DNA from: Candidatus Poribacteria bacterium
GTDB taxonomy: Bacteria; Poribacteria; WGA-4E; PCPOR2b
Assembly (NCBI GenBank): GCA_965208325.1
Contig: OZ242326.1
Span: forward strand, 512,001-576,000
Reading direction: 5' to 3'
Length of the DNA: 64,000 bases
Part shown: piece after piece, positions 1,625-8,036 of the stretch
Numbering within the stretch: position 1 is the first letter of the stretch
Layout: each line of letters opens with the position of its first letter
Program-made: the position numbers and the translations under genes
Notes under the pieces: generated by a model
What the model saw: only the letters and a program-made list of their open reading frames with translations
What the model was told of the DNA's origin: nothing
Databases searched by the model: none

Positions 1625-4363
1625 TTACGGGTGTCGGTGCTGCACAAAACTCACGGGAATGAGTATCAGAAGAGCGGGGATTATCACCCATTTCCATTCT
1701 GTAAAGAGCGGTTCTATCCCCAGGATTGGATGTGCGTAAGGGAGATAGACAATAAACACGTGTAAACCCATGCACGCCAGAATAGTAATTAAAAGGGGCA
1801 CATTCGCAATGACTCTTTTGAGAAGGGATTGCCAAGGATGTCGATGGCATTGAAAGGTTGCGGCCAATTGTGTGAAGATTAAAATGGAACATGCGACTGT
1901 TTGCGCTTGAATCTGACCCGAAGATTGCAGCGTCGCCACAAACCCGACAATTGTCATGAGTGCAATCCAAAGGCCGCGAACTAGGATATCAAAGCGATAG
2001 TCTTTTGAAAGGAAGGGTGAAACATTATGGCTTCGGTTGTGCTTCAGCTGACCTTGTATTCGATCTTGGCCGAGCGCAATTAGCGGAAATAAATTGACGA
2101 GTAAGTGGATCCAGATGATGTGATGCAGAGTAAGCGGCATTGGGAATTCGCGCCACAACTGCAGGCCGGATCCGAGCTGAAGGATGAGTCCAATGAAAAG
2201 CGTGGTCATCTGCGCTAGCGTACACGTCAACAACCAACGCATAGAATTCTTAAGATTACTGTGAGCTTCACGCGCGTGAAGCAGCAGATCGGCAATGAAA
2301 CGAAACCCATCCTTAAGTATTAAACAACCCGCGTTATGTTGGATTACGGGCGACGTACATGACGCAGATGCAATACTGACATCAGCCGCTTCCATTGCCC
2401 TTGTATCGGTAGGTGCTTGTCCGCAAAAACCGACCGAATGATTGTTGTGTTTGAGTTTTTCTACCAGCTTAAGTTTTTGTTCCGCAGATGGGCTGCAATA
2501 TACAAGTAGCCGATTGGCAATCGAATCGTAATGCTCTTCGCTAAATTCGTCTAGATTTGAGCGGGATACAACAGCATTTCCATCCTGGATAATTCCAAAT
2601 TCTCGCGCAACATCTGTCGAATTTTCCTTGTCTTTTTCGGTAATCAGCACTACTTTAACACCTGCACCTAAGCAGAACTCAACACTCTCTTTAGAACCTT
2701 CATATTCCTGCTGTGAAAAGGCGACTAATCCCAAAAAAGTTAAGTTTCGACCTATTTCGTCTTGCGGCGGAAGGGAATTGCGACTTCGATAGGCGACGCC
2801 AAATACTTGGGCTCTGTTATCCGACAAATATTGAGCAGCTAGTCGAATCATCTGTTTTTGGTCAAAACTTATGCGATCCATGGATTCGCCAATTTGCATT
2901 CGTTGAGCGCCCTGTATTATAGCGTCGGGGTGACCAAACATAATATTCAAAAACCTGTTTTCTTGCGTTTCCAAAACAACTGCGTCAAAGGGCGGGCCTG
3001 CTGTTTCCGTTATTTCAGCGACTTTCGTTAAAGCTGCATCATAATGCTCTAAATCCAATCCGATTTGGTCCGCCAGCTTAATCAGTGCTTCAGCGACAAC
3101 ATCTTCCGACGGGTTTTGATTGATTAAGTCGCGGCGTTTGCCATGAGTCTTGCAAAGTGTCGCTAACAATATCAACAGTTGAAAACCAGGCGAGATTGCG
3201 CCATTCGGTGGCAGAGACGCATCTAATGTCTCGTCCGTCTCTTGTGGCACAGTCTCAGCATTCTTTAACCTATCTTCCCACGATTCTCTGTCGATGAGTT
3301 CTTCATCAATAAAAACACGAGACGTGGACATTTGCTCTTTTGTGAAATTACCAATCTCATTGACGCATACGGCTGTTATGCTGCTTAGCCGCTCAAGATT
3401 TACCACATCGCGAATACCAATGCCCTTTTTGAACAGTTTGTGAGCATTTCCTGCCAGAGTTGCCCGACACGTTGAAACTACCCCGTCGGGAATGGAAGCG
3501 AGTACAAACCCTAATCCAAGAAAAAGCAATGATTGCCAATTTTCCTCAAAACTTTTGCGTTGAAAGTACCAAGTCGCCAAGACCGCAACCCCTCCTAATA
3601 TCAGGCCGGTAATCTTAAATCGATTATAAACCGAGTCCATCTGAATCTCTGCTTCCGACTCCAAATTAAGCTCGGTAGGGGCACTGCGGTACGGTTGGTT
3701 GATTTCTAATTCTTCGCCTGTTCCGACGACTATGGCGCGTCCCTCGCCTTGTAACACATACGAGCCCGCAAAAACCATGTTAGCCTGTTTTTCAGGCGGT
3801 ACGGTCCTATCGGGCATGTCATCTGTTGTTTTTTGCGTTGACATCGACATGCCGAATAGCGGAGTTTCATCAACAACCAGATCGTCCGCGTCAACTATTC
3901 GCGCGTCCGCGGAGATGAAACTCCCTTCAGCCAAGACAAGCAAATCTCCCGGCACAACCGATTCGGGTGTGACATTTTCAAGTCGTGCATCTCGAATGAC
4001 CGAGACCGTAATTTTTAGACTGCGCTTAATTGATCGGCGATGCGAGCGGGATTTGCTATCTTGGAAAAACTGCCACAGCAAGTGCAAGAAGAGAACACCA
4101 AAAACTGCGATCGCCTTAAGAAGAGAGTGGTTGGGATAGGTATGGATGATTCCAACGATGACTAAAATAACAACTGTAACGCTAGTCAGTTGCCTTGCGA
4201 AGAAGGAAAGGATAGGCCTTTCATGGGATGGTAGAATTTCGTTGTCGCCGTATTCACCTCGCCGTGCACTTGCTTCATCAGCGCTCAACCCACGCTCAAG
4301 ATCGGTATTAAACTCGTGTAGAATATATGGAATTTTCTGGGTGTACCAATTTGATGTGTTCAT
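1625..4363 (-). CDS. P2-type cation-transporting ATPase homologue with degenerate catalytic motifs (probable pseudo-ATPase)
   Basis: Complete architecture (GLS..EA..RR..YG.N, VPGDL, NMVFAGS, ADVSIA, C-terminal TM bundle), but DKTGT reads NEIGN, TGES reads FGMS, TGD reads TEK and GDGxND reads GQAPTD. Confidence 0.9.
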   Translation of the reverse strand: MNTSNWYTQKIPYILHEFNTDLERGLSADEASARRGEYGDNEILPSHERPILSFFARQLTSVTVVILVIVGIIHTYPNHSLLKAIAVFGVLFLHLLWQFFQDSKSRSHRRSIKRSLKITVSVIRDARLENVTPESVVPGDLLVLAEGSFISADARIVDADDLVVDETPLFGMSMSTQKTTDDMPDRTVPPEKQANMVFAGSYVLQGEGRAIVVGTGEELEINQPYRSAPTELNLESEAEIQMDSVYNRFKITGLILGGVAVLATWYFQRKSFEENWQSLLFLGLGFVLASIPDGVVSTCRATLAGNAHKLFKKGIGIRDVVNLERLSSITAVCVNEIGNFTKEQMSTSRVFIDEELIDRESWEDRLKNAETVPQETDETLDASLPPNGAISPGFQLLILLATLCKTHGKRRDLINQNPSEDVVAEALIKLADQIGLDLEHYDAALTKVAEITETAGPPFDAVVLETQENRFLNIMFGHPDAIIQGAQRMQIGESMDRISFDQKQMIRLAAQYLSDNRAQVFGVAYRSRNSLPPQDEIGRNLTFLGLVAFSQQEYEGSKESVEFCLGAGVKVVLITEKDKENSTDVAREFGIIQDGNAVVSRSNLDEFSEEHYDSIANRLLVYCSPSAEQKLKLVEKLKHNNHSVGFCGQAPTDTRAMEAADVSIASASCTSPVIQHNAGCLILKDGFRFIADLLLHAREAHSNLKNSMRWLLTCTLAQMTTLFIGLILQLGSGLQLWREFPMPLTLHHIIWIHLLVNLFPLIALGQDRIQGQLKHNRSHNVSPFLSKDYRFDILVRGLWIALMTIVGFVATLQSSGQIQAQTVACSILIFTQLAATFQCHRHPWQSLLKRVIANVPLLITILACMGLHVFIVYLPYAHPILGIEPLFTEWKWVIIPALLILIPVSFVQHRHP

Positions 4364-4507: not shown

Positions 4508-5452
4508 TCATCTCATTCCACTATTCACGCACGAATTTGTTTGTTCTCCTATATCCACGGTTGCGCCGGTAGAATCAATTGATAGAATCTTAACGTTGCA
4601 GGACACACCGTGCATTGCAAAAGCTTGATTCATTTGATTAGCGATATTTTGCTCTTCCTTAATGCAATATGCGGCAACACTTGGCCCCGCGCCGCTGAGC
4701 GCAATCCCTAATGCACCTGCTCTCATAGCGGCTTCAGCAACGTCGTCAAATCCTGGTATGAGCGATTTCCGATAAGGTTGATGCAACCGGTCACGCATCG
4801 CGAACGGCAACAATTCTAGGTTGCCAGTTGCGAATGCAGCGACGAGTAACGAGCTGCTACTTACGTTGTGGACGGCGTCGCAAAATTTTACAGTGTCTGG
4901 CAAGACGCCGCGTGCCCGTTCTGTCGGCATCTGGAAATCTGGTATGGCTATGGCAACGGAAAGATTGGGATGACAATCCAATTTGATGGTGTGTACTCGC
5001 CCGTCAAGTGTGAGTGATACTACCAACCCTCCTAGAAGAGAAGCGGCAACATTATCTGGATGCCCTTCAAGTGCTGTTGCGAAATTGAGTAGTTGGTCTC
5101 GCGAAAATGGATCGCCGCAAAGCGCGTTAGCTGTCAATAAACCGCCGAGAATAGCCGTGCCGCTCCCACCTAACCCTCGAATCGCTGGGATGCCATTCTC
5201 TATACGCAATCTGAGTCCTCTGGGTTGGTAGCAGGTTTTTTCGAAAACCACATTTGCGGCGCGATAGGCTACATTATCAACATCTTTGGAAATAATTTGC
5301 GAATCAATCCCGCTAACGAGAATTTCAATGCCAGAATTAATCTCCTCGAGTTCAACCGTACTATAAAGTCGGAGGGCCAACCCGAGCACATCAAAACCAG
5401 GCCCCAAATTGGTTGTGCTTGCAGGGATCCGGGCGATTGATTTGCGCGGCAT
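4508..5452 (-). CDS. thrB: Homoserine kinase
   Basis: PASTTNLGPGFD, GHMP P-loop PAIRGLGGSG, EGHPDN, LHQPYR, SGAGP. Confidence 0.95.
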   Translation of the reverse strand: MPRKSIARIPASTTNLGPGFDVLGLALRLYSTVELEEINSGIEILVSGIDSQIISKDVDNVAYRAANVVFEKTCYQPRGLRLRIENGIPAIRGLGGSGTAILGGLLTANALCGDPFSRDQLLNFATALEGHPDNVAASLLGGLVVSLTLDGRVHTIKLDCHPNLSVAIAIPDFQMPTERARGVLPDTVKFCDAVHNVSSSSLLVAAFATGNLELLPFAMRDRLHQPYRKSLIPGFDDVAEAAMRAGALGIALSGAGPSVAAYCIKEEQNIANQMNQAFAMHGVSCNVKILSIDSTGATVDIGEQTNSCVNSGMR

Positions 5453-5460
5453 AAATTTTC

Positions 5461-6630
5461 CTAGTTATTGATGCGTGAAATTGCCGCGTCCATGCGGACT
5501 AATGCTTCACTGATATTTTCTAAGGAATTTGCATACGAAAGTCTGATGTATCCGTCGCCGAATTTGCCAAACCCGGTACCAGACAATACGCCAACGCCCG
5601 CTTCTTCAAGCAGATAATCCTCTAACGCTTCGCACGACATTGGAACTTGCGAGACATTCGCAAAGACGTAAAAGGCGCCAAGCGGTGTGATACAACTGAT
5701 ACCATCAATGGAATTTAAACCTTCGACAATCAGATTACGCCGCTGCCGGAACTCGGTTACCATTTGAATAACGAAATCTTGCGGCCCTTTTAAGGCTTCA
5801 ATACCAGCTATCTGTGTGAACGAACAGGTACAAGAATTGGAGTTAATCATCAATTGCGTAATTTTATCCGCCATCGGTTTGGGTGAAATTCCGTATCCCA
5901 ACCGCCATCCTGTCATCGCATAGGTTTTAGAATGACCTTCAATAAGAATTGTCCGCTCCTTCATCTCAGGAAGGCTGATTATACTTTCATGGACACCTTC
6001 ATAAAGAATGCGCGAATAAACCTCATCTGTTAATACATAAAAATCGTACTTAATCGCTAATTCCGCGATGGCTTCGAGATCAGATTTTTCCAAAATACCG
6101 CCCGTTGGATTTTGGGGCGAATTGATGATGAGAAGCCGTGTCCGATCCGAGATTGCTGAGGCAAGATCTTCAATTCGGAAGCGGAAGCCAACGTCTTCAC
6201 GCAGCGGCAGTGGAACCGGCGTGCCTCCGACAAAGTTTATGACCGATTCGTAAATTGGAAAGCCGGGGTTGGGATAGATGACTTCACTTCCTGGTTCGGC
6301 GAGTGCGAAAATAGTAAAAAAGATAATGGGTTTGGCGCCGGGAGTAACTGCGACTTCTTCAGGATGGACTATGACCCCTCTGGTTTCTGAGATATGTTCC
6401 GCGGCGACTTCGCGAAACTCAATTAATCCCGCGGAGGGACCGTATCCGGTATATCCATCCTTCATCGCCTTATACCCCGCTTCGCAGATGTTCATCGGGG
6501 TATTGAAATCCGGTTGCCCAATTTCGAGATGTATGATATTCCGGCCTTTTGCCTCTAAGCCTTTTGCTTTTGCCAGCACTTCGAAGGCGGATTCAGTTCC
6601 TAGCCGACTCATTCGCTGCGCAAATCTCAT
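5461..6630 (-). CDS. PLP-dependent class I/II aminotransferase (aspartate aminotransferase-like)
   Basis: GQPDF, NSPQNPTG, DEVY, PLP-lysine motif SKTYAMTGWRLG, IRLSYA. Confidence 0.93.
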   Translation of the reverse strand: MRFAQRMSRLGTESAFEVLAKAKGLEAKGRNIIHLEIGQPDFNTPMNICEAGYKAMKDGYTGYGPSAGLIEFREVAAEHISETRGVIVHPEEVAVTPGAKPIIFFTIFALAEPGSEVIYPNPGFPIYESVINFVGGTPVPLPLREDVGFRFRIEDLASAISDRTRLLIINSPQNPTGGILEKSDLEAIAELAIKYDFYVLTDEVYSRILYEGVHESIISLPEMKERTILIEGHSKTYAMTGWRLGYGISPKPMADKITQLMINSNSCTCSFTQIAGIEALKGPQDFVIQMVTEFRQRRNLIVEGLNSIDGISCITPLGAFYVFANVSQVPMSCEALEDYLLEEAGVGVLSGTGFGKFGDGYIRLSYANSLENISEALVRMDAAISRINN

Positions 6631-6673: not shown

Positions 6674-7711
6674 TTATTCAGAATATTTCATTACGAAACC
6701 GTTGTTACCGGTAATCCAAATGTGGTTCGCGTCCAGAATAAACAGGTCGTTGACTGGAATTTTACTAATCATCGTCCCTTCAATGCTCTGGTTTTCCCAC
6801 GTTTTGCCGCCATCGATTGTATGAATTACGATGTTGATTCCCATATCGCCCCCAACTGCCCAACCCATCCTTTTGTCGACAAACTGCACGCTAGAGAGCG
6901 TTTCCTGCGTATTACTCGATTGTATTTTCCATCTATCGCCGCCATTTGTAGTGTGCAGCACAACGCCGCCTTCACCTACCGCCCAGCCGGTTGAGGCATC
7001 TATAAAAAATATATCTTTAAGGGTATCTTCGACATTTGTAAGTTGATCTGCCCAGGTTTTTCCACCATCCGTGGTTTTTTTAACGATCCCGTTTTGAACG
7101 CCGGCTTGCGGATTCACAAAAACACCCGCTATCCACCCGGTAGATTCGTCAATAAATTGTACGCAGTTGAACAATCCCTCTGGCTCCTCTCCAATTCGTG
7201 TGGGAAGTACGCCCCCTTGTAGGATATTCCATATTTTGCCTCCGTTAGTTGTTTGTAAGATGGTTTCTCCCATGCCCACCGCGTAACCGAATTCTTCGCT
7301 TACAAAGTGAATATCATACAACCAGTTGTCGACTTTACTAGTTTGGATATCCCATTGTTTGCCGCCGTTTGATGTCCCGACAATCATCCCATTCGCCCCT
7401 ACAGCCCAACCGTGCTTCTTGTCATAGAAAAAAACATTCGAGAGAATCTGATTGACGGCAATCTCCGCTTTTTCCCATGTCTTCCCGCCGTTCGTCGTAC
7501 GACCGATATAACCCGGATTCTCCATTTCCAAAGCTGAAACCCCGGCGACCCATCCTTCCCTCGCACTCACAAATATAATCGCATTATAATCTCGAATATC
7601 CTCATTATCCTGTTCCTGTAGAGCAAACCATTGTCCGTCGCCGTAAAGCGTGGTTGTCATGACCATTGATGCAAGCAAAAACGTTGTCAGAAACGCTGTC
7701 TTGATGTACAT
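6674..7711 (-). CDS. Secreted YCF48/BNR(Asp-box)-repeat beta-propeller protein
   Basis: Signal peptide; repeated GWAVG...TT(N/D)GG(K)TW motifs; GGAG RBS. Confidence 0.88.
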   Translation of the reverse strand: MYIKTAFLTTFLLASMVMTTTLYGDGQWFALQEQDNEDIRDYNAIIFVSAREGWVAGVSALEMENPGYIGRTTNGGKTWEKAEIAVNQILSNVFFYDKKHGWAVGANGMIVGTSNGGKQWDIQTSKVDNWLYDIHFVSEEFGYAVGMGETILQTTNGGKIWNILQGGVLPTRIGEEPEGLFNCVQFIDESTGWIAGVFVNPQAGVQNGIVKKTTDGGKTWADQLTNVEDTLKDIFFIDASTGWAVGEGGVVLHTTNGGDRWKIQSSNTQETLSSVQFVDKRMGWAVGGDMGINIVIHTIDGGKTWENQSIEGTMISKIPVNDLFILDANHIWITGNNGFVMKYSE

Positions 7712-7742: not shown

Positions 7743-7771
7743 AGTATAGCACCCATCGCGGTTGCTGTCAA
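7743..7771 (-). promoter_or_regulatory. sigma70 promoter for the YCF48-aminotransferase-thrB(-ATPase) run
   Basis: TTGACA-N17-TATACT with extended -10 TG. Confidence 0.75.
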
Positions 7772-8036
7772 GCACAAACAAACCTTGATCTATGCGAAGC
7801 ATATTTCCCAAGGGAGCGTTGCGTCATTTTAGGCAAATTCCAATTATTGTCAAGAAAATTATTCAAAGTTCCGTTTTTGTTTGCACCGGTGTATACAGCC
7901 CATGATTTCAGCTTCGGTTTGATGGCAGTCCAAGGCTATTCGCTGTATAGGTTATTGAGGTTTAATATCGGGAAACCAGCGGTGTGCACGCATTGTAATA
8001 GTGGGATTCGATGACATTCGTAAGGAGGTAGGATAC

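Follow-up and report, generated by a model that had tools for sequence, protein, structure and literature searches.

A probable phylum-wide, non-pumping pseudo-P2-type ATPase in Poribacteria

A P-type ATPase homologue with replaced catalytic motifs

We examined a stretch of 64,000 nucleotides from a Candidatus Poribacteria bacterium (GCA_965208325.1, contig OZ242326.1, positions 512,001 to 576,000; this whole stretch is hereafter the window), which carries a gene for a pseudo-P2-type ATPase, the pseudo-pump, at 1625..4363 on the minus strand. Poribacteria are a sponge-associated phylum, and P-type ATPases are defined by their aspartyl-phosphate cycle. The gene is one uninterrupted open reading frame (ORF) of 912 amino acids with an ATG start and no internal stop, and its assignment draws on Pfam, on matches to the SPCA1 and Listeria LMCA1 structures and on a ratio of non-synonymous to synonymous substitution rates (dN/dS, omega) of 0.099. 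We find the A, P, N and M domains all recognisable. Three Pfam models score above their cut-offs and lie in canonical order along the protein, namely E1-E2_ATPase (92.8 bits, cut-off 28.1), Cation_ATPase_C (76.0, cut-off 27.3; residues 741-904) and Cation_ATPase_N (57.8, cut-off 20.4), whereas the P-domain model Hydrolase is slightly sub-threshold (25.6 vs 26.4) and the N-domain model far sub-threshold (13.7 vs 21.7). The sole NCBIfam model passed is that of the generic HAD-IC P-type ATPase subfamily, TIGR01494 (90.1 vs 62.3), and the equivalog cut-offs of TIGR01522 (PMR1-type; 227.7 vs 798.3) and TIGR01116 (SERCA-type; 187.0 vs 703.4) are missed. P2-type ATPases have ten transmembrane helices, four before and six after the headpiece; a Kyte-Doolittle scan gave nine clear membrane segments at the positions expected for M1-M7, M9 and M10, with a weaker M8, and additionally scored one non-membrane stretch of the N domain.

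The best match to a solved structure by phmmer was human SPCA1 (8iww/8iwp; E-value 3e-58), with Listeria LMCA1 likewise among the best, and a profile of the clade of degenerate relatives described below matched the SPCA1 and LMCA1 structures both at an E-value of about 4e-105. Upon alignment with SPCA1, the segments vcvNEIGNftk, lFGMs, ipDGv, itEKdke and fcGQAPTDtra of the pseudo-pump stand opposite icsDKTGTltk, lTGEt, ipEGl, itGDsqe and mtGDGvNDava, respectively, which excludes misalignment and marks these as genuine motif replacements. All the features that follow lie on the minus strand, and motif residues and their numbering were checked by re-translating the exact codons. The former phosphorylation loop reads N335-E-I-G-N for D-K-T-G-T (3347..3361), the former A-domain dephosphorylation loop F170-G-M-S for T-G-E-S (3845..3856), and the M4 motif P292-D-G-V for P-E-G-L (3479..3490), each from the SPCA1 alignment, 62 orthologues and the codons. 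Within the N domain, alignment and codons place F476-G-H-P-D at the position of K-G-A-P-E (2924..2938), the ATP-contact Lys being gone, and an unrecognisable VAFSQQEYEG at that of DPPR (2696..2725). From the 62 orthologues and the codons, T575-E-K replaces T-G-D (2633..2641), with the Thr retained and the Gly and Asp gone, and the hinge reads G648-Q-A-P-T-D for G-D-G-x-N-D (2405..2422). The first-pass annotation of this stretch had described an intact 912-residue P-type ATPase homologue with these substitutions and with neither a stop nor a frameshift; every residue and number matched on re-translation, and 1625..4363 holds a single ORF. Two further losses emerged beyond those it had listed, the membrane cation ligands (Q718, H753, N757) and the N-domain ATP contacts.

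These losses were examined by comparing 50 members of the clade with 26 active relatives at sites conserved in at least 85% of the active set. Among 157 such sites, 66 are kept, 81 are variable and 10 have been re-fixed to a new residue, the latter being T>F170, T>L219, L>A238, L>F286, V>L323, K>E336, V>P625, A>G645, L>M657 and E>Q718. Of the active-conserved sites, 23 of 28 survive in the A domain, against 4 of 21 in the N domain. Relative to the consensus of the 26 relatives, the N-domain ATP contacts are replaced (K->F476 in KGAPE, R->Y554 in DPPR and F->Q453) and the GDPTE block is variable; the roles of the KGAPE Lys, the DPPR Arg and the adenine-pocket Phe/Glu as ATP contacts are assumed here from the SERCA literature. 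The former M5-M6 cation site (2093..2221) carries T715/Q718/H753/N757, where active relatives have N/E/N/D, as seen both in the consensus comparison and in the SPCA1 alignment. Position by position, D293 stands at the PEGL Glu of M4, T715 and Q718 at the Asn and Glu of M5, and H753 and N757 at the Asn and Asp of M6, aligned with SPCA1 N738 and D742; we take these M4, M5 and M6 positions to be the ones that bind Ca2+. Of 64 sequences, 58 have Q718 and 62 have H or Q at 753; Asp never occurs at 757, where N, S, T, G or V stands instead. The pseudo-pump is thus predicted to have lost ATP binding, phosphorylation, dephosphorylation and Ca2+ binding, and to be non-pumping.

Alignment against active relatives also delimited a clade-specific, Trp-rich stretch in the P-to-N hinge, F351...W362-E-x-W365-L (3266..3313), in which W362 is invariant in the clade and W365 at least 90% conserved, with gaps at both positions in the active relatives. 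Over the stretch as a whole (residues 351-366) the active relatives are mostly gapped; it has no counterpart in active pumps and is a candidate new interaction surface.

Orthologues and selection across the phylum

Next, we investigated how widely the degenerate form is distributed. In a word-indexed search, 69 clusters scored 609-1913 bits at 36-91% identity, before a cliff to 268 bits and 23-26% identity. Upon aligning the query with its first 100 matches, we observed that none of the 69 clade members has DKTGT, TGES or GDGxND, whereas all 31 matches beyond the cliff (P0070-P0100) have all of these motifs. More distant degenerate members (P0124-P0127, P0131 and P0135), at 25-32% identity, came to light when 1.84 billion representatives were scanned exhaustively with HMMER; their loops are individually scrambled (for example VCVEHTGG, LCVEQESS and LCVEREWG), and by a pattern check 13 full-length sequences among the 149 nearest representatives lack all three motifs. 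A search of the ESM Atlas with the pseudo-pump returned generic P-type ATPase clusters only. Those cluster members that carry a name at source are annotated as 'Ca2+-transporting ATPase' or 'cation-transporting P-type ATPase [Candidatus Poribacteria bacterium]'.

When one genome per species was scanned, 80 loci were recovered, of which 63 hold a clade member at 32-92% identity, 59 of them titled Poribacteria and 4 'uncultured bacterium'; the remaining 17 loci, at 22-27% identity, belong to other phyla. A scan of the phylum at E<=1e-20 found a P2-like match in 175 of 176 genomes, including all 133 high-quality ones, and exactly one such match in 168 Poribacteria genomes. Weak scores in two genomes (G036 and G074) come from fragments at contig ends.

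We stratified the motif states by position across 62 Poribacteria orthologues, the set to which the following counts refer. Asp occupies the acceptor position in 48, Asn in 11 and Ser in 3, and the residue after it is E in 60, D in 2 and Lys in none. The first-pass annotation had asked whether orthologues keep DKTGT and whether the substitutions are common to them; the motif is found in none of the 62 genomic orthologues and in none of the 69 database clusters, and the motif losses are shared by all 62. Position 170 is F in 61 orthologues, and the TGES Glu occurs in none. At the position of the M4 Glu we find E in 27, D in 8, H in 10, Y in 9, F in 4, Q in 3 and N in 1. TGD is likewise absent throughout, its Thr position being T or S in 60 of 62, and in GDGxND the first Asp is present in no orthologue and the last Asp in every one. 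Where the acceptor Asp is retained, it sits in a D-E-x-G context with the TGES Glu absent. On a 64-row tree the acceptor has switched among D, N and S at least seven times, in some cases between sequences that are 95-96% identical, and this repeated switching indicates that the nucleophile itself is not required.

The clade was then examined for selection, with omega taken from Nei-Gojobori estimates. A single intact ORF of 907-976 amino acids is present at 61 of 63 loci and the other two run off contig ends, so that no orthologue is cut by a stop, frequent truncation having been a possibility raised in the first-pass annotation; the 150 matches listed from the phylum scan likewise contain no internal stop. 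Between the pseudo-pump and its closest orthologue (L004), dN is 0.042 and dS 0.420, giving the omega of 0.099, and of 367 pairs for which omega was computed the 60 closest range from 0.07 to 0.29, in agreement with the ratio well below 1 that the same annotation had looked for. Per domain, omega is 0.06-0.19 in the closest pair and 0.09-0.21 in the next two pairs, and it is 0.10-0.17 in M5-M10. For comparison, neighbouring genes in the same genome pair have omega values of 0.110 (ThrB), 0.114 (aminotransferase), 0.066 (BNR protein) and 0.034 (LexA), and across the same three genome pairs CopA, a live pump, has 0.173, 0.162 and 0.189, against 0.099, 0.146 and 0.142 for the pseudo-pump. Every domain of the pseudo-pump, including N and P, is under purifying selection, and the constraint is at least as strong as that on the live CopA and on par with that on the housekeeping neighbours.

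Synonymous divergence itself differs between loci. In the comparison of the window's genome with that of L004, the pseudo-pump has a dS of 0.42 and its neighbours 0.25-0.57, against 0.138 for CopA (L002 vs L112), an approximately threefold difference between loci that may reflect recombination or differences in codon usage.

Origin of the clade and models of its function

In a 54-row tree (LG+G4), the 22 degenerate sequences form one clade with a Shimodaira-Hasegawa-like approximate likelihood ratio (SH-aLRT) support of 100, nested among active P2A-like pumps. The same clade was recovered with an SH-aLRT of 99 in a 26-row tree, the 54-row set minus 28 rows, under the site-heterogeneous LG+C20 posterior mean site frequency (PMSF) model. 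Its most basal members come from family f10, which belongs to another class of the phylum (L085, G001:C23, and L086, G002:C17), and they retain the remnants I-C-S-N-K-K-G, T-K-G and G-D-S-A-N-D (G-D-x-x-N-D); their genomes also carry canonical P2 paralogues on other contigs (L089, L090, L092 and L093). The f10 forms, taken with these paralogues, look like a snapshot of early steps of inactivation. As judged from these trees and motif states, pump chemistry appears to have been lost before the main Poribacteria lineages diverged, from a once-active bacterial P2A-type Ca2+-ATPase of the PMR1/SPCA/LMCA1 kind. The simplest reading is that there would have been one ancient inactivation (Asp to Asn, with loss of TGES), after which the nucleotide and ion sites would have eroded stepwise and the active P2 paralogue would have been lost in the main lineages.

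The complement of P-type ATPases in present-day genomes was examined with the Pfam model PF00122. The window's genome, 4.71 Mb on a single contig, has two PF00122 genes, the pseudo-pump and a 772-residue CopA-type P1B pump (L002, G000:C1:2400812-2404348), which lies 1.9 Mb from the pseudo-pump and has HMA, CPC, DKTGT, TGES and GDGIND all intact. A canonical P2-type (calcium-pump-like) ATPase was looked for in this genome and not found. All 150 genomes that are at least 90% complete have a PF00122 match, and about 122 of them have exactly two, the pseudo-pump and a P1B-sized pump, indicating that the pseudo-pump is the only P2-type homologue in most Poribacteria.

The protein is by descent a P2A-type member of the P-type ATPases, and by every functional criterion tested it appears not to be one. 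We consider it very probable that it is a selected, non-pumping pseudo-ATPase that is ancient and phylum-wide, in line with the first-pass annotation, which had proposed a selected pseudo-pump as opposed to random decay; the shared losses, the intact ORFs and an omega of about 0.1 all point the same way. Several observations weigh against this conclusion or qualify it. The acceptor Asp is retained in most orthologues (48 of 62); T/S575, K630 and D653, the equivalents of the TGD Thr, of the conserved P-domain Lys and of the last hinge Asp, are kept as well, and some residual phosphate or metal chemistry in the Asp-bearing orthologues is conceivable. In one genome of a deep lineage (G009, 64% complete) the gene is spread over two overlapping frames, 403 and 629 amino acids long (L097/L100, G009:C15:24776-27089), which reflects either frameshift and decay or an assembly error. 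The single genome of the 176 that lacks a match (G071) is 81% complete, and G003, of family f11, has a canonical pump only. Long-branch attraction among fast-evolving degenerate sequences could inflate the apparent monophyly, although the site-heterogeneous model agrees with it. Finally, no partner gene is conserved phylum-wide, and the gene string described in the last section is absent from 23 of 63 loci.

Since no ATP-driven E1/E2 cycle would be possible, the function would reside in the fold. The mechanism that we prefer, tentatively, is a membrane scaffold or regulator that is either conformationally static or responsive to a ligand. In such a protein the former phosphorylation pocket would be refilled by the protein's own side chains, namely the re-fixed F170 of the loop in the A domain, E336 next to the acceptor, and a Lys or Arg at 337 or 577; the neutralised ion site would hold the helices packed without a bound cation; and the preserved A domain, together with the clade-specific Trp-rich hinge, would offer contact surfaces. 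A scaffold or regulator is favoured because the three cytoplasmic domains are constrained, the ancestral surface of the A domain is kept and ten catalytic-site positions are re-fixed, and because swapping acids for amides in the membrane would make an empty ion site more stable. Of 62 sequences, 57 have a Lys or Arg at 337 or 577, only one of them at both positions, but this charge pattern tracks phylogeny and amounts to one or two events, and it counts only weakly towards a refilled pocket.

The main alternative, possible although rather unlikely, is an uncoupled channel or passive carrier, in which the M domain would move an ion or small solute downhill with the headpiece as gate or plug. 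Such a conduit would fit the polar residues that persist at the old ion site (Q718 and H/Q753, at the frequencies given above), the constraint on M5-M10, which equals that on the rest of the protein, and the good conservation of M7-M10 within the clade. However, the other former ligands vary (E/D/H/Y/F/Q/N in M4 and N/S/T/G/V at 757), which is not expected of one defined substrate site; the acid-to-amide changes would also stabilise an empty site; and a pure channel would not need three cytoplasmic domains held at an omega of about 0.1. We consider it doubtful, though conceivable, that the protein is an ATP-independent receptor or gated conduit whose headpiece would be self-locked in a phosphoenzyme-like pose and which would work with the secreted Ycf48-like beta-propeller encoded upstream. 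If this were the case, a stand-alone bacterial pseudo-P2-ATPase would for the first time have a defined new function, and the device would be a trait of the whole phylum.

The remaining explanations fare worse. Pseudoenzymes often regulate active paralogues, and about 122 of the 150 genomes have the pseudo-pump and a P1B-sized pump as their two PF00122 matches; nevertheless, a non-catalytic regulatory subunit of another P-type ATPase seems very unlikely, as the sole candidate partner here is the distant CopA, of a different subfamily, and in the f10 lineages the active P2 paralogues sit on other contigs. The first-pass annotation had also offered an active P2 paralogue as a possible partner, and this option fails in the window's genome, which has none. 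That the protein is still a working ATP-driven pump with non-canonical residues, as its database names state, is barely credible despite the match to the generic TIGR01494 model and the Asp acceptor of most orthologues. The acceptor here is Asn; the TGES Glu, the Lys and Thr of DKTGT, TGD and the first hinge Asp occur in no orthologue; the ATP-contact positions are variable and the Ca2+ carboxylates gone; the PMR1 and SERCA equivalogs score far below cut-off; and, in a survey, DKTGT is intact in 99.77% of 9,634 P-type ATPases (PMC3896382). A decaying pseudogene or assembly artefact, which the joint loss of many motifs and the split copy in G009 might suggest, is practically refuted by the intact ORFs at 61 of 63 loci, the omega of about 0.1 and the presence in all 133 high-quality genomes, and many independent assemblies carry the gene, with ten formerly catalytic sites re-fixed.

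When compared with known systems, the active pumps LMCA1 (lmo0841; 6zhf, 9euq) and SPCA1/PMR1 (8iww, 7yag; TIGR01522) have the same domain order and length as the pseudo-pump, and probably the same ten-helix layout, at 22-26% identity, whereas in the latter other residues stand at the catalytic motifs, the ATP contacts and the Ca2+-binding positions. Among P-type modules described as degenerate and yet retained, the one nearest to this case is the flippase module of the alveolate P4-ATPase/guanylate-cyclase fusions (P4GC), which likewise keeps the P-type fold although the acceptor Asp, the A-domain Glu or both are lost (PMC13466520). That paper reports degenerate DKTGT and LDGET motifs in Cryptosporidium, in P4GC-beta, in gregarines and in Tetrahymena, and its authors suggest that ATPase activity is possibly lost while the module is still necessary (PMC13466520). 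However, P4GC is there described as eukaryotic, of the P4 type and always fused to a cyclase, which provides an obvious output, in contrast to the pseudo-pump, which is bacterial, P2-derived and stand-alone, with no output domain. The UniProt-wide survey by Pedersen et al. (2014, PLoS One 9:e85139; PMC3896382) counts 22 of 9,634 P-type ATPases in which DKTGT is not intact, 17 of them bacterial and all 22 with single point changes, and its authors suggest that such rare variants reflect errors in sequencing, proteins that do not function or proteins that are highly specialised. Like the pseudo-pump, these are P-type homologues without an intact DKTGT, but there they come with no evolutionary follow-up, whereas the pseudo-pump has lost every motif, has phylum-wide orthologues and is under measured purifying selection. 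A review from 2023, devoted to the questions still open for P-type ATPases, expects, in its term-searched text and section 15, more prokaryotic families, and no mention of dead pumps was found in those parts (PMC10654040). Our literature search, with most subscription journals outside it, found no description of such a bacterial family, only engineered mutants and unrelated work.

The clade offers a natural experiment on the uses of a P-type fold stripped of its chemistry, and the series from the partially degenerate f10 members to the fully degenerate ones records in what order the parts disappeared. In addition, the annotation of these proteins as Ca2+- or cation-transporting ATPases would be a systematic error, one that would mislead metabolic reconstructions of sponge symbionts.

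Gene neighbourhood

The pseudo-pump is the last gene of a string on the minus strand. Directly upstream lies the homoserine kinase gene thrB (4508..5452; TIGR00191, 268 bits vs a cut-off of 168), which is adjacent in 40 of 63 loci, at a median distance between the thrB and pseudo-pump matches of 88.5 base pairs (bp). It is preceded by a gene for a class I/II (aspartate-type) aminotransferase (5461..6630; Pfam Aminotran_1_2, with all NCBIfam equivalogs below cut-off) and, as the first gene of the string, by one for a secreted Ycf48-like BNR beta-propeller (6674..7711; Pfam PSII_BNR, 103 bits). The same-strand order of BNR propeller, aminotransferase, thrB and pseudo-pump is found in 40 of 63 loci, and N-termini resembling signal peptides are present in all 40 BNR orthologues listed. 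Just upstream of the BNR gene, also on the minus strand, are two sigma-70-like promoter matches (7743..7853), each matching at 11 of 12 positions and together the two best in the region; the total of such matches is 10, vs 12.8 in shuffles, and thus not above chance, and the pair upstream of the BNR gene is merely suggestive.

Upon examining other lineages, we observed that the aminotransferase-thrB-pseudo-pump string persists in family f8, whereas in family f5 the BNR gene lies 96 bp upstream of the pseudo-pump, without the aminotransferase and thrB. In a large sub-lineage, at 45-47% identity, the string is broken and the pseudo-pump has been relocated behind a response regulator, an RNase E/G-like gene and rplU. 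We found no mechanistic reason for a link of the pseudo-pump to thrB or to the aminotransferase. A search of sequencing runs turned up no RNA data, only 4 runs of a single study, stored as contigs. Co-transcription of the string from the BNR gene to the pseudo-pump is plausible from the gene order, and a functional link to the periplasmic propeller would be a lead only.

Genes downstream of the pseudo-pump are not conserved, lexA being next only in the closest relative. The scan for terminator-like and promoter-like elements was overall not above chance, and Rfam at the gathering threshold gave no match in the window. Between the stop of the pseudo-pump and lexA there is a non-coding gap of 384 bp (1241-1624), which contains two terminator-like hairpins on the minus strand, at 1360-1376 and 1271-1291.

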